From positions 25,374 to 89,373 of IMG/VR virus record IMGVR_UViG_3300014204_000010: a DNA stretch of 64,000 nucleotides; one strand, given 5' to 3'. The stretch comes from a virus. Its lineage: Duplodnaviria > Caudoviricetes. Positions 51,459 to 64,000 of the stretch are shown here, piece by piece. The number at the start of each line of letters is the position of its first letter. Position 1 is the first letter of the stretch. Under the pieces are notes generated by a model that worked only from the letters and a program-made list of their open reading frames with translations, had not been told where the DNA came from and searched no databases. The position numbers and the translations under genes were made by a program.

Positions 51459-52123
51459 TTCATTAACTCACTTTCTTTTAGTTTAGAGATTGCAGCTTTC
51501 TTGCTACTCTCAATAATTGCACTTGAGCAATCTCAAGTAGTAATAAGCTTTTGTTTGACTGCTTATTTCAAAGAGCAAAGCGCATAAAGCGCAATTCTGT
51601 TTTCTCAAAATAAACGCTTTTTTGCAACTATTTATTTTTTAAGCATTTTTTGACAATGTAGCTCCGATTAACCATATAAATCAATATTACTACCGGTTAT
51701 TATTAATATTCCCCTATATAAGGCTTATATGTATTAACACTATGCGGCGTAACGGAATAATCCAGGTTCCTCAAAAACAGGTATTTCCTAAATCCGATAT
51801 AGCATCTCAGTATTAACAATTTGTTATAACTGTAGCACCTGAATCCATGGTATAGTAACGGTCTCTGTATTAACAATTTGTTATAACAGTAAAACATTAT
51901 AGGTTTGGATGGTTATCCACCACCTGGGATTGGAGCAGGATTAAGGAATAGAAAGACCGTCTGGAGGAGGACCATCAACCGGAAAAAGGAATTAATTAAA
52001 AAATCCTCATTTACGGTTGGGCCCTCCCGAAAATCCAGAGACCCTACCCAGGGGGAGGAACTCCATCCCCAGGACCTGGATTTCCTTCCCCACCGACCTT
52101 AAAAAACAAACAAAAAACAATCC

Positions 52124-52153
52124 TTGACATCGTGTTGAGGACCCCTATATACT
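52124..52153 (+). promoter_or_regulatory. sigma70-like promoter
   Basis: TTGACA (52124-52129), 18 nt, TATACT (52148-52153), with A-tract UP-like element upstream. Confidence 0.55.
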
Positions 52154-52295
52154 CGACTCATTCAGCAAAGGAGAGGAAAAGCAGGTCCGATCCATGGTTC
52201 GGTAGTAAAAGGGCCGTAGGTTATTTCAGACCTGATATAGGCGAATCAGCCGCGGTTATTAGGTTTCGGTGCGCCTTGGCTCGGGGAGTCCTCCC

Positions 52296-52390
52296 CGGTA
52301 CCTTTCCGGTCCTTTTCGGTACCTTTCCGGTCCTTTCCCGATACCTACCGGTACTTTTTCGGTACTTTTCCAGACACTTTTCGGTTACCA
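52296..52390. repeat. degenerate ~10-11-bp tandem repeat (CGGTACCTTTC-like)
   Basis: About 8 units such as CCGGTACCTTT, CCGGTCCTTTT, CGGTACCTTT, CCGGTACTTTTT, CGGTACTTTT. Confidence 0.85.
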
Positions 52391-53210
52391 AACCTTCCTA
52401 AAACCACTATAAATCCACAAAACTTCTGGTTTCCTAAAGACTTTTTTCCGTAAACAAGGATTAATTTACCGATAAAATACTGATGCGCTTAATTCCTTTA
52501 TATCGGTTATTTCCATACCTTTTCCTTATATGTACCTACTACACTACACTTATTTCTGATGGGTTATTTCCTACCTTTTATTTATACCTATCCTTCCTTT
52601 ATCTTATATTGACAATGAGTATTCCTTTCCTTTATTTATTGCTTTATATACCTTTTACTTATATATGGATTGGTTTATTCCTTTCCTTTTTCTTATTTAT
52701 ATTTACTTATTCTATACTCCTAAATACTTTCTATTTGGTGGTATTCCTCATTACTGGCTTGGCTACTCTTTATTGTTTCTTCTCTCTTTGGGCCTTCTTT
52801 GGTGGTCGGTTCTGATTCTTGGGATTGGTTATGTTTGGGGGAGGATGCGGTGGTGGTTGCTGTTATAACAAATTGTTACAACTGAGAAGTTCTTTGATGG
52901 CTTGGTGGTGGAAAGGATCCACCTCGATTTTGGCTAGGGGGAGATTTTTTGGGCCTTCCTTTTTTGAGGATTAGGTACATGTGTGATAAACCTGCTTCAG
53001 AGCTTGATTTGCCCTCTTTTTAAGCTGTACCATCCGTCTTGTACCGCGGTAACCATTCTCTTTTGAGTTCTTCTACAGAACCGCGATGGACAGCTTGGAG
53101 TCCTTAAATCCGAACATTTTTTCCTAAGGAACCGGAGGCAGAAATTGGTGACTGCCAGAAATCCTAAGGAACTACTTGAAATGCTTAGTGAAAAAAAATA
53201 ATTTTTTTTC

Positions 53211-53239
53211 TTGACACTCCAGCATTTTTTCTCTATAAA
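53211..53239 (+). promoter_or_regulatory. strong sigma70-type early promoter
   Basis: TTGACA (53211-53216), 17 nt, TATAAA (53234-53239), preceded by AAAAAAAATAATTTTTTTTC (UP-element-like). Confidence 0.85.
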
Positions 53240-53668
53240 GTAGATATGAAAGTGATATGAAAGTGAGATGCAGTTATGAACCAACTTCATATTGTGAGAC
53301 TTAACTCTAACCCATTCTTTGACATAAAGCTTAGAAACCTCGGTTCTAAGCTTGATTCTGAAATACTTTCCGGCAAGAATATTTGAGGCTTGCTTAAAAA
53401 CAGAGACACCGGGAAAGTGAGTAAAGAATCTGACTGAACATGCTGAGAGCTGTCTAGGTATCGTTTTCACAATGGAATCTCTTAGTCAACCAAAAACAGA
53501 CACTAAAACAGACAGACGATCTTACCGACGTAGGTAGCACTTATTTTCCAGTGCTGACAGATGAGTTTTTGGAGGTGTTACAATTAGTGCAACGAATGAA
53601 ACTTAACATGGTGGCTTAGCTGTTGGAAACAGTTTCTACTCTCTTTCTTTTCTCCTAGGTGCGTTAGG

Positions 53669-53704
53669 TGGGTAGAGATTGAGATTGACTTCAATCTCTA
53701 CCCA
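53669..53704 (+). other. perfect 14-bp hairpin just before the first early RBS
   Basis: TGGGTAGAGATTGA / TCAATCTCTACCCA with an 8-nt loop. Confidence 0.7.
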
Positions 53705-53731
53705 TTCTTTAAATTGAGTATGGAGGCAGAA

Positions 53732-54082
53732 ATGAACAAACCACAATGGTTTATTTACGAGCTGACTGATGCTGGAAAAGTTAGGATTTATCCTAACAGA
53801 CCGGCTTCGTCTATTGCAGTTGTCCAAGCTCGTTTGGAAGGTCTCACAAGAGATCGCAAGGGTCGAAATCAAACAAGAATGTTTGAGGTTTGGTGTGATC
53901 TTTGCTTGATCTGCAATACAGAGGTACGGAACGGGATTATCTTGAGTGTCCATTATTATCAAGAAGTCCGCACGGAAGGTGAAATTGACGCTGATTTCTA
54001 TTATGCAAATCGTAATAGAAAGATTAGGTTTGGTAGAGCTGCTGGCGATGTCAGCAGATGGATACTTAAAGCTGCTATTTAG
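53732..54082 (+). CDS. early hypothetical protein
   Basis: ATG 53732 after GGAGG; first ORF of the early operon. Confidence 0.7.
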   Translation: MNKPQWFIYELTDAGKVRIYPNRPASSIAVVQARLEGLTRDRKGRNQTRMFEVWCDLCLICNTEVRNGIILSVHYYQEVRTEGEIDADFYYANRNRKIRFGRAAGDVSRWILKAAI

Positions 54083-54295: not shown

Positions 54296-54300
54296 TAGAT

Positions 54301-54356
54301 GCAGAGGGACACAGTGTAATGTGGTAATGCACTATGCTAGCTTCCCAAGGGCTAGC
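54301..54356 (+). ncRNA. degenerate twister ribozyme (copy 1)
   Basis: GCAGAGGG, weak P1 (CACA/TGTG), TAATGCAC, P4 GCTAGC/GCTAGC; loop is TTCCCAAGG instead of TCCCAAGT. Confidence 0.55.
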
Positions 54357-54387
54357 CTACTATTAATACATGGAAGGTCGGAAGGTT

Positions 54388-54445
54388 GCAGAGGGGAGCC
54401 ATGATATGTGGCTCTAATGCACGATTCCCGTCCCAAGTCGGGAAT
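54388..54445 (+). ncRNA. twister ribozyme, permuted (P5-type opening), copy 2
   Basis: GCA-GAGGG-P1(GAGCCA/TGGCTC)-TAA-TGC-AC-P4(ATTCCCG/CGGGAAT, loop TCCCAAGT); predicted cut U54415|A54416. Confidence 0.9.
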
Positions 54446-54467
54446 ATGTCTTATAAAGGAGGAAAGA

Positions 54468-54596
54468 GTGGAAATTATTGTCAAGAATAGATGCTTGCAA
54501 TGGTTAACCAAGTTCATCCCTTACTGGCTTGTAAAGGAAGGTAATTTGGTTAAGGTTCGTTACGGTAAACTGTTTGCCACTAAGATCACATTCTAA
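54468..54596 (+). CDS. small early protein (42 aa)
   Basis: GTG 54468 after AAAGGAGG, in frame with track ORF 54408-54596. Confidence 0.55.
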   Translation: MEIIVKNRCLQWLTKFIPYWLVKEGNLVKVRYGKLFATKITF

Positions 54597-54621
54597 CTGA
54601 AAAGGACAAAGGAGGAAAGAG

Positions 54622-54999
54622 ATGGCTGATGTTCATTTGATTGAACCGCATGAGCAACCGGTGGAGCAAACACGATCGGTACAGTACTCAAAATTGGAAC
54701 TCATTCTTTCGGTTAAGAATGAGGAAGAGGAGACAGTCAAAGATGTTCTGGATATCATTGAGCTGGAGGCTAAAGCTCTCAATGACATGTTGGAAACGGT
54801 TGATGGTAATCCTCATCGACTCACCGTCATCACAGACACAAATGGTTTCAAGGACGAATTCTTGGTGGTAACGTCCAATATTTTCAGCTTTCGAGAGATT
54901 TCCGAGATTCTGGTTAGGATGACGGAAAGTATCGCCGTAGCATCGGCAAACACGTTCTTCACGGAACGCAAAATCAAGTGGGAAGAAATTGCACAGTAG
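54622..54999 (+). CDS. early hypothetical acidic protein
   Basis: 125 aa, SD AAGGAGG. Confidence 0.75.
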   Translation: MADVHLIEPHEQPVEQTRSVQYSKLELILSVKNEEEETVKDVLDIIELEAKALNDMLETVDGNPHRLTVITDTNGFKDEFLVVTSNIFSFREISEILVRMTESIAVASANTFFTERKIKWEEIAQ

Positions 55000-55005
55000 A
55001 GCATG

Positions 55006-55064
55006 GCAGAGGGAGACCCGAGCAATCGGGTCTTAATGCACATATCCCGTCCCAAGTCGGGATA
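55006..55064 (+). ncRNA. twister ribozyme copy 3
   Basis: P1 AGACCCGA/TCGGGTCT with GCAA tetraloop; P4 TATCCCG/CGGGATA; cut U55034|A55035. Confidence 0.92.
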
Positions 55065-55089
55065 ATAAAACTTAAGGAGGGAAGAGAGT

Positions 55090-55917
55090 ATGGAAAAGGA
55101 AAGCGTAAGAAATGCTGAAATCTACCGTCTAAAGATGGTAGAAAATAAGAGTAACTCGGAAATTGCTAAGGTGTATGGCATCTCCCCGGTGAGGGTCGCT
55201 CAGATAATCTGGGACATCTCGGAAAGCGAGTCAAAAGGTAGAGTTGCAGGTCTTCATCCCTTCCCATCTCAGTGGGAAGAACATATCCTGATCAATACTC
55301 GGGAGATAAACGTCCTGACGAGAAAAGGAATTAAGACTCTGAAGGAACTCACGACTTACACGATCAAGGAACTTCGGGGACTCAAGAATGCTGGACCGAA
55401 ATCATTCGGCAGTCTCCAAGAGAAGCTTGAGGAACTCGGTTATTACATTGCTGGTACTCAGCCAGAAATCAAGCTGAGGCAGGATGACATCGTTTACCTA
55501 CTGATGCAAAAATTAAAGGATCACGCCACTTCTTGTAAGAAGGGTACATACAATCAGTCCGATCCGACAGCTTACGAGAAAGTAACCAGTAAGCTCTTTC
55601 TCCAGTATGGATTCAGCTTCCCCATAGTATCGGAGGATGAAGAGCCAGAACTTTTTGATGACTTCTGTCCCGATCCTGAGACTGTTATCATCCAAGCAAA
55701 CGACTGTACATGGGGAATCAACTTCACCATTAAAGCTTCGAATGGTAAACATGTCGGTTACTGGTCAAGAGAATCAACCGGAGCTGATGGTAAATGGACG
55801 GGATGCTCACCGGAGTTTATCCCCGTCATCACACGATTGTTCCTTGGAGGAACTAGGGAACCGAGTGAGAATGACATAGAAGACCCGTACAGACGGGAAA
55901 TTGATCTTAACAAGTAG
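55090..55917 (+). CDS. HTH plus RNA polymerase alpha-CTD-like domain protein
   Basis: N-terminal sigma-4-like HTH (NSEIAKVYGISPVRVAQII); then NTREINVLTRKGIKTLKELTTYTIKELRGLKNAGPKS, matching the alpha-CTD pattern. Confidence 0.75.
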   Translation: MEKESVRNAEIYRLKMVENKSNSEIAKVYGISPVRVAQIIWDISESESKGRVAGLHPFPSQWEEHILINTREINVLTRKGIKTLKELTTYTIKELRGLKNAGPKSFGSLQEKLEELGYYIAGTQPEIKLRQDDIVYLLMQKLKDHATSCKKGTYNQSDPTAYEKVTSKLFLQYGFSFPIVSEDEEPELFDDFCPDPETVIIQANDCTWGINFTIKASNGKHVGYWSRESTGADGKWTGCSPEFIPVITRLFLGGTREPSENDIEDPYRREIDLNK

Positions 55918-55925
55918 GTAGAAAG

Positions 55926-55982
55926 GCAGAGGGCAGCCGTTCTAGGGACGGCTGTAATGCACGAAACCGGTCCCAAGTCCGG
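55926..55982 (+). ncRNA. twister ribozyme copy 4
   Basis: P1 CAGCCGT/ACGGCTG; P4 CCGG/CCGG; cut U55955|A55956. Confidence 0.88.
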
Positions 55983-56009
55983 ATTAACAAAGAAGGGAGA
56001 GAAGAGAGT

Positions 56010-56360
56010 ATGGAAGATAAATCGAAACCTAAGACCACGATTATTCTTGCTACCAGATTAAAGTTTACACTTATTATCCGAAATGAGTCCGGGGAGGCAG
56101 GAGAAGACATCATCAATGGTGTAACGGCTTTCGTGAGGAAGCTTAATTACCTCTTTGAAAGCCAAAAGTGTGCGCCACTAGATGTTACTGTGGAGATTGA
56201 TTCTTGTAAACTGGAGGATGAATTGTCGGCTTCCGTTACTGACTTGCGAGGATTCAGTCTGTTTGCCAAACACATACCGCATTTGCTTGACAGTATCACC
56301 GGATCGTCGTCTAACTTCTCATTTACGGGTAAGAAAATCCGTATTGAGAATTTGGAGTAA
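56010..56360 (+). CDS. early hypothetical protein
   Basis: 116 aa directly after ribozyme copy 4. Confidence 0.7.
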   Translation: MEDKSKPKTTIILATRLKFTLIIRNESGEAGEDIINGVTAFVRKLNYLFESQKCAPLDVTVEIDSCKLEDELSASVTDLRGFSLFAKHIPHLLDSITGSSSNFSFTGKKIRIENLE

Positions 56361-56378
56361 GGGTCGGAAATAAACGAT

Positions 56379-56434
56379 GCAGAGGGGAGCCATGATATGT
56401 GGCTCTAATGCACGGCACAGTCCCAAGTCTGTGC
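56379..56434 (+). ncRNA. twister ribozyme copy 5
   Basis: P1 identical to copy 2; P4 GCACAG/CTGTGC; cut U56406|A56407. Confidence 0.92.
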
Positions 56435-56462
56435 AAAAACTAAACTAAGGAGGAAAGAGAGT

Positions 56463-57290
56463 ATGAAAAAGACAGCAAAAGGATTGGTTAAAAAAGCGGG
56501 TAAGGTCGAAGAGAAGAATCAGGTTAAGGATGCTGCGGAAGTAACTGCTGAGGATAAAGCAGTTGCATTGGCTCCGGTAGCTGAAGTTGCTCCGGTAGCT
56601 GAAGTTGCTCCGGTAGTTGATGCTTCGGTAGCTGAAGTTGCTCCGGTAGTTGAAGCTGCACCGGTTTCCGAAGCTGTGCAAGCTGAAGCTACACCGGTAG
56701 CTGAAGTTGCTCCGGTAGTTGATGCTCCGGTGAGACCCGAGATTCCTGCTGATTTCTGCTTAGAGCAGGATTTTTGGGCAGGCAATGAAGCTTGCTTTGA
56801 CCCGGAGAACAAAGACTGTAAGGATTGTGCTGAAAACTATGCACAAGCCTTCGAGGCATGCCAGAAGAGACATGAATTTCTGAAGGCATTGGCCAAGAAG
56901 TCTCCGGCAATGAAGCGAAAGTCTCCTCTTCTCAGTAAGAAACCTCAGTCCATCATGATTGACGATATGATCAAGTTGAGTATGCCCTTGGTGGATATGG
57001 TCGCTAAGTTGTCGGTGGATGAGTTCAACAGTGTGGAGAAGGACGCTCGTAAACGTCTTGACAGTCACATCAAGGCTATCAGGACGGGAACTTACTGCAG
57101 GGCGGAGGCTATGCGTCCGTTCATCGGTTATCTTGAAGCTCCGGCAGCAACGACAGCTCCAGCTGCTTCCGCTCCGAAAGCAGCGGATCCGAAAGCGGTA
57201 GCTCCGAAAGCTAAAGCAGCAAAACCCAAAGCTGCTTCGGCAACGACACTGAAACCGAAGGCAGTGGAAGCGGCATCACCTGCTGCTTAG
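56463..57290 (+). CDS. early protein with APVAEV repeats, central Cys-rich domain and histone-H1-like AKP tail
   Basis: 18-bp GCTCCGGTAGCTGAAGTT tandem units at about 56571-56730; CFDPENKDCKDC; C-terminal APKAKAAKPKAA. Confidence 0.8.
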   Translation: MKKTAKGLVKKAGKVEEKNQVKDAAEVTAEDKAVALAPVAEVAPVAEVAPVVDASVAEVAPVVEAAPVSEAVQAEATPVAEVAPVVDAPVRPEIPADFCLEQDFWAGNEACFDPENKDCKDCAENYAQAFEACQKRHEFLKALAKKSPAMKRKSPLLSKKPQSIMIDDMIKLSMPLVDMVAKLSVDEFNSVEKDARKRLDSHIKAIRTGTYCRAEAMRPFIGYLEAPAATTAPAASAPKAADPKAVAPKAKAAKPKAASATTLKPKAVEAASPAA

Positions 57291-57295
57291 AAATT

Positions 57296-57358
57296 GCAGA
57301 GGGCTCGGGGACAACTGATGTCCCCGAGTAATGCACAGCCTGAGTCCCAAGTCTCAGG
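57296..57358 (+). ncRNA. twister ribozyme copy 6
   Basis: P1 CTCGGGGACA/TGTCCCCGAG; P4 CCTGAG/CTCAGG; cut U57329|A57330. Confidence 0.92.
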
Positions 57359-57387
57359 TAAATAAACTAAAGGAGGAAAGAGAGAAG

Positions 57388-58119
57388 ATGACCAAGGAAG
57401 ACATCATCAACAAGGTTCTGAAGTTACTGCAATTGGGAGATGCCAACAAGAACGAGAACATTCACCAGAGGGAAGCAGCCATGAACAAAGCTGCAAAGCT
57501 CATGGCGGAACATGCTGTAAGCTTTGCAGACCTCAGGGAAGGTAGGGTAAAAGAAAGTCCCTTCACCCATGTTGTCATTGACGGTTCTTCCATCAACCCT
57601 AAAGTCTGGGAACTGATACTCTGTACCAGTATAGCAAAAGTGTTCGATTGCTCTTCCGTCAACTCTTTAAAACCATCATTTCAGATGCACGTCCTCGGTG
57701 AAAAAAGTGACGTGGAGCTGGCTGTGTTCTTCTATACTTATCTCAGCAGATCGGTAAGGAACATGGTGAGAGTCCACACCACCAAAGAAAAGCTTCTCAA
57801 AGAAGGATATCTTGGAAACGAGAGTGTGTTTCGGGACTCATATGCAAACGGTATTACGGAGAAAATCCGATCCAGACTGGAGGACCTGTACTCAAAGAGG
57901 GAAGCTTTTATTCCCTCTACGGGTAAGGAACTCATGGTTGTAAAAATGAACGAGGTTTCAAGCTATGTAAAATCTGTATTCCCCAATCTAACTAAAGTCA
58001 CCAAGACCATGGTCAGAGACGGTCATGCTTACATGAAAGGTCTGAATGACGGGGAAAAAGTGAACATCTCTCGGCCCATTGCAGGCAATGGAGCAACACA
58101 GGAAGGAGCTATCGAATGA
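57388..58119 (+). CDS. DUF2786-domain protein
   Basis: IINKVLKLLQLG....IHQREAAMNKAAKLMAEH N-terminal motif; ATG 57388 after AAAGGAGG. Confidence 0.75.
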   Translation: MTKEDIINKVLKLLQLGDANKNENIHQREAAMNKAAKLMAEHAVSFADLREGRVKESPFTHVVIDGSSINPKVWELILCTSIAKVFDCSSVNSLKPSFQMHVLGEKSDVELAVFFYTYLSRSVRNMVRVHTTKEKLLKEGYLGNESVFRDSYANGITEKIRSRLEDLYSKREAFIPSTGKELMVVKMNEVSSYVKSVFPNLTKVTKTMVRDGHAYMKGLNDGEKVNISRPIAGNGATQEGAIE

Positions 58120-58262
58120 TGTACCTTATGATTTCCCATATGATCGTTTTGATTCTCGGAATCATCGTCGGGTGGACAATGAGAAATTGCATCCGACGGA
58201 GGCTAGCATCAGCCCGCTTGATTGATTTTGACAGCTGGTTTGCTGCTGGAAAAAGGAAATAG
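58116..58262 (+). CDS. small single-TM protein (48 aa, not in ORF track)
   Basis: MMYLMISHMIVLILGIIVGWTMRNC...GKRK*; ATGA overlap with the upstream gene; its TAG overlaps ribozyme copy 7. Confidence 0.6.
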   Translation: MMYLMISHMIVLILGIIVGWTMRNCIRRRLASARLIDFDSWFAAGKRK

Positions 58263-58319
58263 CAGAGGGGACGGGGAGAAATCCCCGTCTAATGCACAGC
58301 CTGAGTCCCAAGTCTCAGG
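58262..58319 (+). ncRNA. twister ribozyme copy 7
   Basis: P1 GACGGGGA/TCCCCGTC with GAAA tetraloop; P4 identical to copy 6; cut U58290|A58291. Confidence 0.92.
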
Positions 58320-58346
58320 AAACCTAATTAAAGGAGGAAAGAGAGT

Positions 58347-58934
58347 ATGAAACAGGATTTTGATAAGGTCTTAAACTCGGTGGTTCTGGAAGAGTATGGT
58401 GGGTGTAATCCCAGTAAAGATCCGATAATCACGCTCAAAGCTCGGATTGAGGAAGGTGCAATCCTTGTCTTTCTCGTAGGCAAATGGCGACCCATAAGGT
58501 CTTATTTCGGTAGAAAGTCCAGCATAACGAACAAAGTTATACTGAAGGATATGAGGGACATTATCCGAAGAAACACCGGATGGAGTAAGACTGCCCTCAA
58601 AGATAAACCTATTGAGTTCAAATGGGTTTATCTCGGTTCTAAGGACTTTCCAATAGTCCTTAATAATTGGTCGGTAATCAGCTTTAGAAATTCTCCATTC
58701 GACGCTCCGGAGCTTCATCAAACAGCCCTTGCTGGCACCACCGTAGAGCATCCGGTTCTGGGCAAAGATTACCGTGTACGAACTACGGGTATCCAAGAAG
58801 TCGATGGTCTTCTTGCCAAGACTAAGCATCATTGGTACAAGCTGGGGTCGGTAGATCCTATGTATAGGATTTATCTGAAAGACCACAACATTCCGTTCGA
58901 TGAGAAAAATCCAATCAAGCTCAAAACTAAGTAG
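58347..58934 (+). CDS. early hypothetical protein
   Basis: 195 aa after the canonical RBS; C-terminal GTTVEHP...RTTGI...YKLG motif. Confidence 0.75.
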   Translation: MKQDFDKVLNSVVLEEYGGCNPSKDPIITLKARIEEGAILVFLVGKWRPIRSYFGRKSSITNKVILKDMRDIIRRNTGWSKTALKDKPIEFKWVYLGSKDFPIVLNNWSVISFRNSPFDAPELHQTALAGTTVEHPVLGKDYRVRTTGIQEVDGLLAKTKHHWYKLGSVDPMYRIYLKDHNIPFDEKNPIKLKTK

Positions 58935-58990
58935 CAGAGGGGACGGGGATTCTCCCCGTCTAATGCACACAGTCCGTCCCAAGTCGGACT
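58934..58990 (+). ncRNA. twister ribozyme copy 8
   Basis: P1 GACGGGGA/TCCCCGTC; P4 AGTCCG/CGGACT; cut U58961|A58962. Confidence 0.92.
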
Positions 58991-59012
58991 AATAACTTAA
59001 AGGAGGAAAGAG

Positions 59013-59309
59013 ATGGCAGAAACAAAGATTCAGTGGATCGTTGAGGCTGATCCTACCGGAAAGTCTCTCTTTGAGAACTTGATCCGCAGCCGCAACGACG
59101 AGAAGCTGGCGGAGAACATTCTGAACCTTCTGAGTTGGGCAAAACCTGACATCATGAAAGAAAGTCCTCTTGCCGTCCTGTTTGAGCTAATCTACAATTC
59201 TAACTGGGAGGATGCGGAGCATACAATAATAGACTTGTCTGAGGACAAGAAATGGATCACTATCGAATCCCGTTGTCCAGAAGTTTTCGTTCATTTGGGG
59301 GAGAAATAG
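59013..59309 (+). CDS. early hypothetical acidic protein
   Basis: 98 aa between ribozyme copies 8 and 9. Confidence 0.75.
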   Translation: MAETKIQWIVEADPTGKSLFENLIRSRNDEKLAENILNLLSWAKPDIMKESPLAVLFELIYNSNWEDAEHTIIDLSEDKKWITIESRCPEVFVHLGEK

Positions 59310-59363
59310 CAGAGGGTGGCTGCTTTGGCAGCCATAATGCACGGCACAGTCCCAAGTCTGTGC
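59309..59363 (+). ncRNA. twister ribozyme copy 9
   Basis: P1 TGGCTGC/GCAGCCA; P4 GCACAG/CTGTGC; cut U59335|A59336. Confidence 0.92.
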
Positions 59364-59391
59364 AAAAACTAAACTAAGGAGGAAAGAGAGT

Positions 59392-60258
59392 ATGGAATTA
59401 GGAGCATTTGTCCAGGAAAGAAGTAGTCAGGAACGTCGGGGTATCCAGGAAAGATACCCGGATATTAGATTTCCTCAACCTCAATTAGAGCCGGTCTTCT
59501 ATGGTCGTCGTGAGAAATTCAGGATAGACGGCAAGAAAGCCATAGTCGATCAAGCCGACAAAGACCTTGTTTTCGGTATATGTAGTGAGGATTACAAGGT
59601 TGTTCATTATGAAGACCTCATAATGATGACCGAAGAAGTGATGGCAAAACAAGGGTTCATGGTGAAGATGAACCCCAGAATCCTCTCAAACGGAGGAAAG
59701 TTCGTGTTGTCTCTCCAGTTTCCCGATTACGGAGAAAGTATCAGAAAAGGGGATGACATCTTCCCAAAGATGGACATCCAGTCCAGTTATGATCTAAAAT
59801 GGAAGCTCACAGGCAGATTTGGTGCTATTCAGCTCAGATGCACCAATGGCTGTGGAACATGGAAAATGTTCAAAAGGTTCGCTCGTAGGCATCTCCAGTC
59901 ACTGATAGTCTCAGAATTGGGAGACACCATCAGTGAAGCTTTGCCAATCTTTACGGAACAAGCAAAGCTCTGGAAGAAGTGGGCACACATGAAAGTACCC
60001 GTTCTGGCTTACGAAGAAATGTGGGCTGATCTCCCATTCAGTCCGGCACAAAAAGAAAAGATTCAGTTACTCCCCGAAATTGGCACCGGTCTCGCAATAG
60101 ATGGTGCCCTGAAGAGGGGAAATCTTGATCTTTGGACTCTTAACTCCATTTTAACTCAGTATGCAACCCACGAACTTAAATCCGATCTCAAAATGGTTGA
60201 AATTGAACCGGTGATTGCAAAAGTCATGGAAGATACTTACGAAAAACTAGCGGCATAG
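59392..60258 (+). CDS. DUF932-family protein
   Basis: FGICSEDYKVVHYED, NGGKF, SSYD, RFGAIQLRCTNG...RRH and LWTLNSILTQYATH motifs. Confidence 0.75.
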   Translation: MELGAFVQERSSQERRGIQERYPDIRFPQPQLEPVFYGRREKFRIDGKKAIVDQADKDLVFGICSEDYKVVHYEDLIMMTEEVMAKQGFMVKMNPRILSNGGKFVLSLQFPDYGESIRKGDDIFPKMDIQSSYDLKWKLTGRFGAIQLRCTNGCGTWKMFKRFARRHLQSLIVSELGDTISEALPIFTEQAKLWKKWAHMKVPVLAYEEMWADLPFSPAQKEKIQLLPEIGTGLAIDGALKRGNLDLWTLNSILTQYATHELKSDLKMVEIEPVIAKVMEDTYEKLAA

Positions 60259-60279
60259 AAACTTCAGGAGGGGGAACTT

Positions 60280-60504
60280 TTGAAATCAAACCCGGTAAAA
60301 TCTATCACTTTGCAAGAAGCCCAAAAAGAACTGGAGAAGGCTGAGCAAAAAGTGAAAGACGGTAATGCTTCACATCTGGATCGGTATGAGTTAATGGAAC
60401 TTGCAGCCCATGTTGCTATCTGGCAAACGATAAGGAATCATGTGTTCGTAGGCAAGATGGTGACCATGGATCTAGTGACAGGTACCCTTAAACTTTGGGA
60501 TTAA
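60280..60504 (+). CDS. early hypothetical protein
   Basis: 74 aa, TTG start after AGGAGGGG. Confidence 0.6.
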   Translation: MKSNPVKSITLQEAQKELEKAEQKVKDGNASHLDRYELMELAAHVAIWQTIRNHVFVGKMVTMDLVTGTLKLWD

Positions 60505-60507
60505 AAA

Positions 60508-60572
60508 GCAGAGGGAGTGAGCGGGGGAGAAATCCCGCTCATTTAATGCACGGCACAGTCCCAAGTCTGTGC
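60508..60572 (+). ncRNA. twister ribozyme copy 10
   Basis: P1 AGTGAGCGGG/CCCGCTCATT (one G-U pair); P4 GCACAG/CTGTGC; cut U60544|A60545. Confidence 0.92.
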
Positions 60573-60600
60573 AAAAACTAAACTAAGGAGGAAAGAGAGT

Positions 60601-61026
60601 ATGTCCAAAACAAAGGAAGCATATGTAGAAGAAATCCTGGTTAGGTTGGCAACAAACCATTCCCCAGACTCTCACATCTACAAAACAGTGGAATCGGGTC
60701 TGAGACTTATGAGTAAGGAATTTGTAGACGCTCTTTGGTCCCTGGTGATATGTATGGCCGAAAGTACCACTGTCAAGGATAATATTAAACTGTTTGCGAA
60801 AACCATTGAGGAGGCTGCAAGAATCCGAGAGGAATCTTGGCATCAACAAAACCACTTTTACAAGAAAAACATAGAGACTGCTGTTCGGGAGGCTGTAGGA
60901 AATACTGAATTGGACTTCAGATTTGCACCAATTATTGAGCTTCTTCTTTCATGTGTCTGGAATGATGCTCTGGAATGGGCAGAAGAGATTAATCAAGAAA
61001 AAGCATCGTCCCAATCGCAAAAGTAG
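60601..61026 (+). CDS. early hypothetical helical protein
   Basis: 141 aa after the canonical RBS. Confidence 0.75.
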   Translation: MSKTKEAYVEEILVRLATNHSPDSHIYKTVESGLRLMSKEFVDALWSLVICMAESTTVKDNIKLFAKTIEEAARIREESWHQQNHFYKKNIETAVREAVGNTELDFRFAPIIELLLSCVWNDALEWAEEINQEKASSQSQK

Positions 61027-61145
61027 TTGAATGAAGATTTACTCGTCTTTTGCGATGGGCAGAGCTGTCCGTCTCTCTCAGAAGCGGACAAAGCTTGTTC
61101 TTGCTAGCATCTAAGCAGAAGACAAAGGGCCTTAAAGGGGGAATT

Positions 61146-61325
61146 ATGATCTCCGAGGATGTATGCAAAGAGGATTGTCGTAAGTTTTATGTACCCGAAC
61201 CCAAGATGACTTGCCCAAACGGTCACACGGGTAGAGTTTACCATGTAAGAACGGGTAAGCTCAATAAGGATTGGTACGAATGTGAAACCTGTTTGATTCA
61301 GTGGGGAGGAACCGATGAGGGGTAA
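61146..61325 (+). CDS. small Zn-ribbon-like protein
   Basis: ATG 61146 after AAGGGGG; CPNGH...YECETC. Confidence 0.55.
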   Translation: MISEDVCKEDCRKFYVPEPKMTCPNGHTGRVYHVRTGKLNKDWYECETCLIQWGGTDEG

Positions 61326-61698
61326 ATTCTACGGTAATATTCTGCGGATTGAAGTAGATACCCATGAAGAGAAGTTAGACGCTGGGGAAGGTCTTCAATG
61401 GCTTCCCTGTGATCTCTGTGGGGAGCTACAAAAGGTAAGTTTGGACCTAACATCCTTTGTCTGTACACCATGTAAAGCAGCCAAAGGAGCTTCTGTCTAT
61501 ATAGAGGAAGAAGATGAGGATGAGGGGAACGTCTTTTGTAGAAGTGAAGATTCCTTGGAATCTTTTCTGAAAGACGGAGGTTGGGAATCAATAGAAGACT
61601 TCGAAGAGGAAACCGGTGTTGCCCGGGAGTTACTTCTCAGACACTGGTTTTGTGTCGTTCATGGTCGAGTGTACATCAAACCTATTCCAGACTTGTAG
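61315..61698 (+). CDS. acidic protein with CxxC motifs
   Basis: CDLCG...CTPCK; acidic C-terminal half. Confidence 0.65.
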   Translation: MRGKFYGNILRIEVDTHEEKLDAGEGLQWLPCDLCGELQKVSLDLTSFVCTPCKAAKGASVYIEEEDEDEGNVFCRSEDSLESFLKDGGWESIEDFEEETGVARELLLRHWFCVVHGRVYIKPIPDL

Positions 61699-61714
61699 GA
61701 AAGGAGGTGAGCTA

Positions 61715-61849
61715 TTGTTCCAAATTATTGGTTTTAGTTTCCTGCTTATCATTCTCCTGTTAGGATCTATTTTCAGACCTAATAGACTTCCTCAAAACAG
61801 GGAAATCAAAAAACCACCACACCCGTTGTATTTTGTAAAGAAAAAGTAG
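61715..61849 (+). CDS. small single-TM protein
   Basis: TTG 61715 after AGGAGG, in frame with track ORF 61616-61849; its TAG overlaps ribozyme copy 11. Confidence 0.55.
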   Translation: MFQIIGFSFLLIILLLGSIFRPNRLPQNREIKKPPHPLYFVKKK

Positions 61850-61904
61850 CAGAGGGCAGGCACTCCGGTGCCTGTAATGCACAGAGACAGTCCCAAGTCT
61901 GTCT
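61849..61904 (+). ncRNA. twister ribozyme copy 11
   Basis: P1 CAGGCAC/GTGCCTG with cUCCGg tetraloop; P4 AGACAG/CTGTCT; cut U61875|A61876. Confidence 0.92.
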
Positions 61905-61930
61905 AACCTAAACTAAGGAGGAAAGAGAGT

Positions 61931-62341
61931 ATGAAAGTAGTGCCGCATATCGTGTTACAGGTGAAAGAAACAGACGAACTTATACTTGTGTCAGGTCCTA
62001 ACGGATGGAACCTAAGTAGGATTTCCTTTGGTTGTCAGTTGCACACTGAACCACCACTGCTGGGCTTAAACGATGTTACTTACCCGGAAGAAGTCGTGTT
62101 CACTATACTCTGGTCCGGTGGCCAGGATGGCTCTATATCTGCAACCGTAGTGGAAACAGTGGTAGATGGGGAATCGAGGGTGTTGTACTCCAAGCGAAAT
62201 ATTCGGGCAGGATATGTTCTTCCTGTTGAGTTTATAGCTGAGGTTATAAACAAAGAGATTGATTCCTGGAATCGCTCCCGTAGGAGGGCAGATGAGTTTG
62301 CCAAAAAGGTAGGGATGACACTACACGAAGGTTCTTGGTAG
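61931..62341 (+). CDS. early hypothetical protein
   Basis: 136 aa after the canonical RBS. Confidence 0.7.
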   Translation: MKVVPHIVLQVKETDELILVSGPNGWNLSRISFGCQLHTEPPLLGLNDVTYPEEVVFTILWSGGQDGSISATVVETVVDGESRVLYSKRNIRAGYVLPVEFIAEVINKEIDSWNRSRRRADEFAKKVGMTLHEGSW

Positions 62342-62626
62342 ATGGAGGATACGAAAATGCCGAAGATTAAGGTTTATCTGAATGGTACTGACAAGAATCC
62401 GTTCGAAAAGATGGGATTGTTACAGAATCCGTTCCCGCAGCTTGCCGAAGCGGAAAGCAACGAAGCAATCTTCCGACTACAGAAGCTGGGAGGACCGCCA
62501 ATTCCTAAGAATGAGGCGGAGAAATACATCAGAGAAACCCTGACAGGATTTAGCCAGGAATTTGTTGATCTGTGTGTGAAGAATTTTGAGGTGGGCAAGT
62601 ATGTCGAATTTACAGTCACATGGTAG
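62342..62626 (+). CDS. early hypothetical protein
   Basis: 94 aa, abuts the previous stop. Confidence 0.65.
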   Translation: MEDTKMPKIKVYLNGTDKNPFEKMGLLQNPFPQLAEAESNEAIFRLQKLGGPPIPKNEAEKYIRETLTGFSQEFVDLCVKNFEVGKYVEFTVTW

Positions 62627-62945
62627 GAAGTACAAAGGTTATAAAATCGTTCATGCCACGGAACGAGATGATGAAGTTCTGTCCATTGCTGATCATTCTT
62701 TCACCATCAAACTTCAAAAGGCTTATAGGTGCTTCCCCGGAGCTGGTTTGTTTCTGGGTTTAACCAAACAATACTGTCTGGACTACTTCTCTATAGCCGG
62801 GGAAGAGGGAGCATTACCCGAATTGCTTCTTACCTATGAATTTAGGGAGAAAGATGTTATCAATGGTGACCCAACATATCAGAATGGAGAGGTACAAGTC
62901 AGGTGGGCTAAGTACCTGGCAAAAGAGAAAGTTGAAGGCAAATAG
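62601..62945 (+). CDS. early hypothetical protein
   Basis: ATG 62601 after GAGG; its TAG overlaps ribozyme copy 12. Confidence 0.65.
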   Translation: MSNLQSHGRKYKGYKIVHATERDDEVLSIADHSFTIKLQKAYRCFPGAGLFLGLTKQYCLDYFSIAGEEGALPELLLTYEFREKDVINGDPTYQNGEVQVRWAKYLAKEKVEGK

Positions 62946-63001
62946 CAGAGGGGTCGGGAGGTAACTCCCGACTAATGCACGGCACAGTCCCAAGTCTGTG
63001 T
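62945..63001 (+). ncRNA. twister ribozyme copy 12
   Basis: P1 GTCGGGAG/CTCCCGAC with GUAA tetraloop; P4 GCACAG/CTGTGT; cut U62973|A62974. Confidence 0.92.
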
Positions 63002-63029
63002 AAACACAAATTAAAGGAGGAAAGAGAGT

Positions 63030-63578
63030 ATGGGAAAAGATCAAAAAATTAAGACAGAAGTAAATCCTGTTCCCAAGATTGCGGAAGCCTTAGTGGGAAA
63101 AACTATGACTGTAAATCTCGGAGGAAAGAAATATGATGTCCACTTCAGAACATCATTCTACACCCTTTCTAAATCCCCCGCTATCGAATTGGTTCTCGCA
63201 GATGGAGAACCGTTTGGAACGCTTACAGTCAATATTCCAGAGGCACTCGAAGTCCATAAGGAAAAGCTTGGTGACATGGAAATCGTCGTCAAGACCTGGT
63301 CAGAGAATGAAGCTCTGGCTGAAGCAGCCTTAAAAACGGGTCTCTTTGAAGACACGGGTCGCCGAATCTCGACGGGCTTTGTGCTTGCCCAAATATGGAG
63401 AGTGAAAGCTGTAGCAACAAATATGCGTCATGAAGGAAAGATTATCGTAACCTTCTCCAGTAAAACAACCGAAGAAGAAAAGGTAAAGATACTCTTTGCC
63501 ATCGAGCAGGTTCTCAATAGTTCGGTGAGTACCATCATTTACCGCTTCACTAACGCTGGCATCCGTGTTCATCTGTAG
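63030..63578 (+). CDS. DUF4313-like early protein
   Basis: GEPFGTLTVNIP...VKTWSENE...GLFEDTG...STGFV motif. Confidence 0.55.
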   Translation: MGKDQKIKTEVNPVPKIAEALVGKTMTVNLGGKKYDVHFRTSFYTLSKSPAIELVLADGEPFGTLTVNIPEALEVHKEKLGDMEIVVKTWSENEALAEAALKTGLFEDTGRRISTGFVLAQIWRVKAVATNMRHEGKIIVTFSSKTTEEEKVKILFAIEQVLNSSVSTIIYRFTNAGIRVHL

Positions 63579-63634
63579 CAGAGGGGTCGGGAGGTAACTC
63601 CCGACTAATGCACATCTCGGTCCCAAGTCCGAGA
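63578..63634 (+). ncRNA. twister ribozyme copy 13
   Basis: P1 identical to copy 12; P4 TCTCGG/CCGAGA; cut U63606|A63607. Confidence 0.92.
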
Positions 63635-63659
63635 AATAAATTAAAGGAGGAAAGAGAGT

Positions 63660-64000
63660 ATGTTAGAGTTCAGGAAAATTTCCCTGTACACAGAGGAAGA
63701 GCTTGAAGAGATGGACAGTTGGCAAAAGAGTGACTACCACGTTTTACGGATGGATGGTGCTGCATTTTTCCTAAATCCGAAAACCATGGTAACCGATCTG
63801 ATGGATTCCCTGGAGTTGCCGGGTTCTTATGACACAGCAGTTCCAGAAAATTGGGCTAGGTCCAATAACTATCCTAAGGGGATGGATTTTGCTTTTTGGT
63901 ATTATCCCCGGGATACCCATGCTGAAGGTCATCTTTTCGGAAAGCCTTTCACTGTCAGAGAAATGATTGTAGCCCTTCGGAAAGAGGTGCAACTTCACCC
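63660..64000 (+). CDS. early hypothetical protein (runs off window end)
   Basis: ATG 63660 after AAAGGAGGAAAGAGAGT; MLEFRKISLYTEEELEEMDSW... open to the edge. Confidence 0.7.
   Translation, partial: MLEFRKISLYTEEELEEMDSWQKSDYHVLRMDGAAFFLNPKTMVTDLMDSLELPGSYDTAVPENWARSNNYPKGMDFAFWYYPRDTHAEGHLFGKPFTVREMIVALRKEVQLH

Follow-up and report, generated by a model that had tools for sequence, protein, structure and literature searches.

Twister ribozymes predicted between the genes of a putative early operon in an uncultivated phage

An array of small elements that, as far as sequence can tell, are genuine twister ribozymes was found between the genes of a putative early operon in the phage record IMGVR_UViG_3300014204_000010 of IMG/VR. 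We analysed 64,000 nt of this 89,373-bp virus record (bases 25374-89373), a stretch that is referred to below as the window. Thirteen intact copies lie within 10.6 kb on the coding strand, with 1-4 genes between neighbours, and their strand order is that of type-P5 twisters, in an open form that lacks the P5 helix. We consider it quite likely that the array cuts one long transcript into gene-sized pieces. The record is rated 100% complete and its ends share a 123-bp repeat, so that it is circular or terminally redundant. As the thirteenth copy is found at genome positions 939-995, ~1.2 kb beyond the window end, the array continues across the join of the record.

Copies, fold and conservation

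An initial annotation of the window had described 12 intact copies and one degenerate copy of a twister core, with P5-type strand order and no closing helix, stems that differ between copies yet pair as + strand RNA, a pseudoknot T1 of GGG with CCC, and a pseudoknot T2 in which AC/GU replaces GC/GC. It had also proposed a search with the Rfam twister models, a test of the copies for covariation and a search of related phage contigs for the same architecture. The analyses below bear this description out.

A scan of the window with the type-P5 twister model of Rfam (RF02684, clan CL00120; curated gathering score 37.6 bits) gave 12 matches where the copies had been annotated, all on the + strand, with 45.7-57.1 bits and with model positions 1-58, the full length, covered (Table 1). 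A permissive scan added the degenerate copy and otherwise nothing of note. This copy retains the core, although its P1 is short and mismatched and its L4 loop reads UUCCCAAGG, with the loss of one T2 pair; no ribosome-binding site (RBS) or gene stands behind it, and an intact copy follows after 31 nt. In the remaining 25 kb of the genome, outside the window, there is no further Rfam ribozyme except the thirteenth twister, and Rfam scans detected no other ribozyme family anywhere in the genome. The replication and structural regions contain zero twister copies.

Table 1. Predicted twister copies and accompanying signals (window positions unless stated otherwise)
Feature	Position	Strand	Score (bits)	Predicted cut	Remarks
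Sigma-70-like promoter candidate	53211..53239	+			TTGACA 53211-53216, 17-nt spacer, TATAAA 53234-53239; A/T-rich tract upstream
17-bp hairpin	53667..53706	+			in ~490-nt leader (53240-53731), before first gene 53732-54082
Degenerate twister	54300..54355	+	21.7		E 0.81, under gathering score; 22.3 bits with model built from this genome's copies
Twister 1	54387..54442	+	49.1	between T54415 and A54416	
Translation-start modules	54443..63662	+			11-14-nt A-rich linker after P4, AAGGAGG(A/G)AAGAGAG(T), ATG or GTG
Twister 2	55005..55061	+	54.3	before A55035	
Twister 3	55925..55982	+	54.5	before A55956	
Twister 4	56378..56432	+	45.7	before A56407	
Twister 5	57295..57356	+	49.5	before A57330	
Twister 6	58261..58317	+	53.3	before A58291	G of upstream TAG stop is a P2 base
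Twister 7	58933..58988	+	49.6	before A58962	G of upstream TAG stop is a P2 base
Twister 8	59308..59361	+	48.1	before A59336	G of upstream TAG stop is a P2 base
Twister 9	60507..60570	+	48.6	before A60545	longest P1 (12 bp)
Twister 10	61848..61902	+	55.2	before A61876	UCCG loop caps P1
Twister 11	62944..62999	+	54.9	before A62974	
Twister 12	63577..63632	+	57.1	before A63607	
Twister 13 (outside window)	genome 939-995 (locus L014)	+	58	before A969	

The copies share the strand order GCA-GAGGG-P1-UAA-UGC-P4, i.e. that of the P5 type. When aligned they show the invariant blocks GCAGAGGG, UAAUGCAC and GUCCCAAGUC, between which lie variable, always complementary stems, and the core with the context of the cleavage site (GCAGAGGG, UAAUGC and UCCCAAGU) is unchanged in 13 of the 13 intact copies. 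For these 13 copies RNAalifold predicts P2, P1 and P4 with compensatory double changes at 12 of 17 pairs; P1 is almost never broken within this genome. The stems contain G-U pairs, which are compatible only with + strand RNA, and the tetraloops seen are of the GNRA (GCAA, GUAA, GAAA) and UNCG (UCCG) kinds. A P5 helix was considered and rejected, as the duplex formed by cognate flanks (-1.45 kcal/mol) is equivalent to that of non-cognate flanks (-1.41 kcal/mol). P5 is an optional stem of the twister class (PMC5408937), and the copies can therefore be taken as an open form with P5-type strand order that retains its class membership.

A covariance model built from the copies of this genome gave 71 matches, 68 of them distinct, in this genome and four other phage contigs. 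The pseudoknots T1 and T2 are absent from this model and were added by hand to the alignment of the 68 copies. In this alignment, where the fit to the model favours the nested helices and not the pseudoknots, 98.8% of cells were paired, compared with 70.5% in column shuffles and 27-45% in slid-partner controls; none of 500 shuffles reached the observed values. Changes on both sides were found in 16 of 21 pairs, including all three T1 pairs. By helix, double changes affect 8 of 8 pairs in P1 and 4 of 5 in P4, while the 3 bp of P2 are invariant (GCA/UGC). In T1, swaps from G-C to A-U occur in 3, 14 and 1 distinct copies for the three pairs, with one unpaired cell. As these pseudoknot pairs covary although they lie outside the model, the support for T1 is not owed to model fitting. 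The swaps are coordinated: GAGAG pairs with UCUC in 14 copies, all from related phages, the remainder have GAGGG/UCCC, and mixed combinations do not occur in the alignment. About a third of the twisters of two relatives, G005 and G008 (L183-L186), have the GAGAG/UCUC form, which amounts to a natural swap-and-rescue set. T2 is AC/GU in 60 copies and has the consensus GC/GC in 2. Twister 3' halves of the AC/GU type were also seen in contigs (L268-L347) named for bioreactor, activated-sludge and human-gut metagenomes and in many others of unstated origin, at least three copies being present in the 93.9-kb contig Ga0209507_1000149.

Among 50,697 deposited phage genomes there was no match to the terminase protein or to the whole array. 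Terminase relatives in IMG/VR show 48-69% identity, and three of them, with 62-66%, carry their twisters in one same-strand block in the same region as here: 20 copies in G005 (complete, 90.6 kb), 7 in G006 (complete, 91.8 kb) and 14 in G008 (a 48-kb fragment). No twisters were seen in contigs with ~51-56% terminase identity, all of which are at most 63% complete, so that the absence is uninterpretable. A pattern scan added 7 twisters on a 10.6-kb fragment and 15 matches, three of them just under the cut-off, in G001 (82.9 kb, complete; absent among the terminase matches listed). Comparable arrays were found in six other phage contigs.

Spacer anatomy and the proposed processing of one transcript

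The ribozymes fit closely between the genes. In the intact copies the distance from the end of the upstream stop codon to the GCA of P2 is -1 to 18 nt, and in 6 of the 13 this stop is a TAG whose G doubles as the first P2 base. Behind every intact copy an A-rich linker leads to AAGGAGGAAAGAGAGT and a start codon, which is the module of linker, Shine-Dalgarno (SD) sequence and start codon that had been annotated initially. The predicted cut lies 51-58 nt upstream of the start codon in this genome, and in four other phages the median distance is 50-56 nt. Where the operon has a junction without a ribozyme, the genes overlap or are at most ~25 nt apart; its sizeable spacers consist of a ribozyme and an RBS and nothing besides. 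Behind the thirteenth twister, the standard RBS (L014:939-1085) serves an open reading frame (ORF) of 19 codons whose stop overlaps (ATGA) the start of a 305-aa gene at 1082. It looks like a coupled leader peptide; ORFs of 6-13 codons occur behind some ribozymes of the relatives.

The array appears to form one ~13-kb unit between two sigma-70-like promoters, upstream of the replication genes. The promoter proposed in the initial annotation at 53211 was seen by direct reading as a sigma-70-like candidate within the divergent control region; a consensus scan requiring T at position 6 of the -10 element passes over it. On the + strand, no further canonical promoter occurs until genome 2309-2337, shortly past the last ribozyme cassette, and between the two, promoter-like sites are not above the level of shuffled sequence and no convincing + strand terminator was found. 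The hairpin in the leader of the unit may function in attenuation or in stabilising the 5' end, and the same order of promoter, strong hairpin and first gene is seen in G005 (L183 1607-1635, 2133-2160). On its two sides the array is flanked by a divergent control region and by genes for helicase, primase, clamp loader, single-stranded DNA-binding protein (SSB) and RecA. This layout is that expected of an early accessory operon, with the timing read from gene order.

We favour self-processing of one transcript because of the matches to RF02684, the covariation of the fold, the placement from stop codon to RBS, the apparent single unit and its early position, the hairpins at the predicted ends, the conservation within the lineage, and the precedent of hammerhead ribozymes discussed below. 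In addition, a high-throughput assay published in 2024 found ~94% of natural type-P1 twisters to be active (PMC11662667). Family, fold, covariation, placement and conservation in the lineage are observed here, and cleavage in vivo, a single transcript, its early timing and any effect on stability and translation are inferred. One ~13-kb early transcript would begin at or near the 53211 promoter, and each twister would fold during transcription and cut itself between the U and the A of UAAUGC. A 5' piece of ~1.2 kb, twelve internal pieces and a 3' piece would result. The predicted cut positions give internal pieces of 619, 921, 451, 923, 961, 671, 374, 1209, 1331, 1098, 633 and 1239 nt, i.e. 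374-1331 nt with 1-4 genes each, in agreement with an initial estimate of ~0.4-1.3 kb and 1-4 genes.

Each upstream product would carry, a few bases past the stop codon, a 3' end formed by the stable P1 hairpin and a 2',3'-cyclic phosphate; the predicted ends are flush in this hairpin, which has -11 to -20.5 kcal/mol. The downstream product would start with a 5'-hydroxyl and, after a predicted 2-9 free bases, the P4 hairpin, followed by the unstructured A-rich linker and the same strong RBS, and the SD sequence is unpaired in most of the predicted leader folds. In four copies (56407-56434, 59336-59363, 60545-60572 and 62974-63001), the 5' end set free by the cut, AAUGCACGG..., should by prediction lengthen P4 through UGCAC/GUGCA pairing, which leaves 2 free bases and sequesters the P2 strand. 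This extension, absent from the other copies, may act as a post-cleavage lock. In a metagenome scan with AATGCAC-N7-12-TCCCAAGTC, no contig among the matches listed starts at the cut, the closest starting 4 nt upstream, in a collection that is mostly DNA and hence says little about transcript ends.

The likely benefit of such processing would be insulation, as every cassette would obtain a uniform, context-independent leader and ends of its own. Its translation and decay would be uncoupled from those of its neighbours without the need for a host nuclease, and cassettes could be gained, lost or reordered without retuning.

Several points weigh against this model. When translation terminates at a stop codon next to P2, the ribosome would cover the 5' strand of the ribozyme and could delay or reduce its folding; terminating ribosome and folded ribozyme therefore compete, so that cleavage might be coupled to translation. 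Both the promoter and the single transcript, like the early timing, are deduced only from consensus matches and gene order. It is also uncertain in which direction the stability of the pieces would be affected, as this would depend on the RNases of the host. A 5'-hydroxyl end can protect RNA, or it can mark the start of decay, as in glmS, whose cleaved message is broken down by cellular RNases (PMC6765202). Finally, the 2024 assay covered neither type-P5 twisters without P5 nor an A-U pair in T2 (PMC11662667).

Mosaic copies and alternative functions

Within this genome the two halves of the ribozymes, before and after the cut, are shuffled between copies and differ in history. Twisters 1 and 4 are 100% identical in the 5' (P1) half and 62% identical in the 3' half, and twisters 11 and 12 are 100% and 79% identical in these halves. 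The reverse is seen in twisters 4, 8 and 9, where the half comprising P4, leader and RBS is 98-100% identical and the 5' half is only 39-45% identical. Identity between copies extends no further than the 5' edge of the ribozyme on one side and the start codon on the other, and the switch occurs at the TAATGCAC core (54388-63634, L014:940-999). The cassettes have also been reordered among relatives. Gene families are common to the arrays, but they occur in other orders and with other ribozyme junctions: with R for a ribozyme, this genome and G006 have the order 'R F5 F6 R', and G005 has 'R F6 R F7 R. F5 R'. Even at the conserved junction 'R F5 F6 R', the flanking ribozyme stems of this genome and G006 are unrelated in sequence. 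Gene conversion or recombination at the invariant core would best explain the mosaic halves. The shuffling of halves between copies and the reordering of cassettes among relatives are the new details here.

These patterns suggest a role at the level of DNA, which we regard as unlikely to be the main function but as the most credible of the alternatives. The ribozyme-RBS module would provide, in its invariant cores GCAGAGGG, TAATGCAC and GTCCCAAGTC, short homologies at which co-infecting relatives or copies within one genome recombine, shuffling early cassettes as promoter or boundary repeats do in other mosaic phages, and RNA cleavage would make each new junction work. The mosaic halves and the retention of the same gene families in changed order with different ribozyme junctions would fit such a process, as would the degenerate, gene-less copy just before an intact one, which is what a deletion between copies would leave. 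However, gene conversion or selection for one best leader could give the same pattern, and most phages, whether or not they have ribozymes, show flux in their accessory early regions. The strong purifying selection on the RNA fold indicates that the RNA function is primary, and a role in recombination would complement self-processing rather than replace it.

It is less probable, and in our view rather doubtful, that the ribozymes are active in order to shorten or time the early messages, by exposing a 5'-hydroxyl, removing upstream protection and so permitting a rapid, independent decay of each piece; alternatively, cleavage might depend on Mg2+, on whether a ribosome occupies the adjoining stop codon, or on some factor of phage or host. 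In glmS, which among bacterial ribozymes is alone in having a settled role, cleavage is followed by degradation (PMC6765202). In the copies whose stop codon runs into P2, the same bases are needed for translation and for folding, and without P5 the two ribozyme halves are joined only by P2, T1 and T2. The title of a 2024 paper in Biochemistry states that flanking sequence regulates twister activity co-transcriptionally. However, both product ends are predicted to be hairpin-capped, with P1 flush at the 3' end and P4 2-9 nt from the 5' end, which appears protective. No conserved ligand-binding or switch element is found beside the core, and the spacer contains only the ribozyme and the RBS.

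We give little credence to a process in which excised RNAs are rejoined, by the reverse reaction or by a host ligase of the RtcB type, into circular mRNAs or 'spliced' messages that skip cassettes. Each piece would begin with a 3' half and end with a 5' half, and from these ends a complete twister active site could be rebuilt around the 5'-hydroxyl and the cyclic phosphate. As P1 and P4 are self-contained and the contacts P2, T1 and T2 are invariant, docking is possible between the 5' half of any copy and the 3' half of any other. If true, this would be a rearrangement of a phage operon at the RNA level. That the copies are selfish or decaying repeats without present function, as might be thought of a repeat family with one degenerate member, is highly improbable, as 13 copies exceed the curated cut-off and each of them has coding-strand orientation and fits exactly into the gap from stop codon to RBS, compensatory changes in P1, P4 and T1 contradict it, and the array is retained at 62-66% terminase identity with none in the replication and structural regions.

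Genome context and comparison with known systems

The assignment to a phage, which is probably lytic, is based on terminase, portal and replication genes, the first two being encoded on the strand opposite to the array. On the same strand, downstream of the array, are genes for a helicase, a primase, a DnaB-like helicase, a clamp loader, a gp32-like SSB, a RecA-like recombinase, a 5'-3' exonuclease and 7-deazaguanine synthesis. The last comprise GTP cyclohydrolase I, QueC and two radical-SAM proteins on the replication arm (L014:12897-18863), which suggests modified DNA. Between the start modules of the array lie ~24 small + strand genes, almost all without known function; searches of the array genes against Pfam, PHROGs and NCBIfam gave only an RNA polymerase alpha-CTD-like domain, DUF2786/DUF7168 and DUF932, the others being orphans. 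The gene at 55090-55917 codes for 275 aa with the RNA polymerase alpha-CTD-like segment (residues ~68-120) and a weakly sigma region-4-like N-terminus, and its product is a candidate factor for the takeover of host transcription. The non-coding control region (51700-52900) is dense in repeats that may serve as an origin or in packaging: two copies of CAGTATTAACAATTTGTTATAAC are present and an inverted relative lies near 52862, tandem GGTACCTTTCCGGTCC-like units are found at 52300-52370, and a pyrimidine-rich repetitive stretch extends over 52480-52800. As to the host, the strong AGGAGG sites argue for one that uses SD pairing. An RmlA-like gene has relatives at 51-60% in many phyla and hence gives no host signal, and no tRNA genes were found in the genome.

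With the type-P5 twisters (RF02684), which belong to the class of Roth et al. 2014 reviewed in PMC5408937, the copies described here share P1, P2, P4, T1, T2 and the UAA site. They differ in the absence of P5, in a P2 of 3 bp and in having A-U/C-G in T2 where the consensus has G-C/C-G, and in their edges, which are fused on the 5' side to a stop codon and on the 3' side to a fixed RBS module.

The initial annotation had considered the gene-by-gene punctuation as possibly new. This part of it does not hold, in view of the six other contigs with comparable arrays and of an earlier report: in prophages, Perreault et al. 2011 found several hammerheads at the borders of single genes or short gene blocks, and they proposed the processing of phage transcripts into operon- or gene-length mRNAs (PMC3088659). 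In that study three tandem hammerhead sets cleaved in vitro in polycistronic RNAs of ~2 kb, and spliced or circular products were sought and not found. A 2019 review applies the same idea to twisters and calls the purpose undefined (PMC6765202). The present array likewise has several clustered coding-strand ribozymes that flank single phage genes or short blocks, in the same position between mostly unknown genes and with the same proposed role. It differs in ribozyme class and in copy number, with 13 copies (20 in a relative) as opposed to three tandem sets of which one is a triple, as well as in the probably lytic lifestyle of the phage and in the coupling of every ribozyme to a uniform leader. 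Our literature searches retrieved no description of phage arrays of 13-20 twisters, which does not prove that none exists. The array is thus a large and tidy case of an architecture that has been suggested for phages since 2011, and neither a new principle nor a new type of element.

Self-cleaving ribozymes number in the thousands in bacteria and phages, and their biological role is still described as largely elusive (PMC6765202). A twister-RBS module in every sizeable spacer, kept across a lineage with 7-20 copies, represents a clear natural experiment accessible through comparative data, and a hint that the module eases gene exchange as well comes from the mosaic copies and the changed cassette order. 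As the phage is uncultivated, direct testing is limited to in vitro and heterologous systems.

In T7, early mRNA is cut between genes by RNase III, a host protein enzyme that recognises hairpins, and the messages end in hairpins. The likeness, a long early transcript that is cut between genes, is one of functional analogy only, as here the RNA would cut itself, leaving 5'-hydroxyl and 2',3'-cyclic-phosphate ends. With glmS the array has in common that a bacterial ribozyme embedded in an mRNA would decide the fate of the downstream message by its cut (PMC6765202). However, glmS is ligand-dependent, present as a single copy and triggers decay, whereas neither a ligand pocket nor regulation is evident here. 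RiboJ-type insulators are engineered, hammerhead-based parts, in which a ribozyme, a hairpin and an RBS before each gene make expression independent of the upstream sequence. The layout of ribozyme, hairpin and RBS is the same, and the array would, by analogy, be a natural counterpart that serves insulation. It points to host-independent message processing and to cassette insulation, a design that synthetic biologists have reached separately, and it supplies 13 natural, mutually compatible ribozyme-leader parts.

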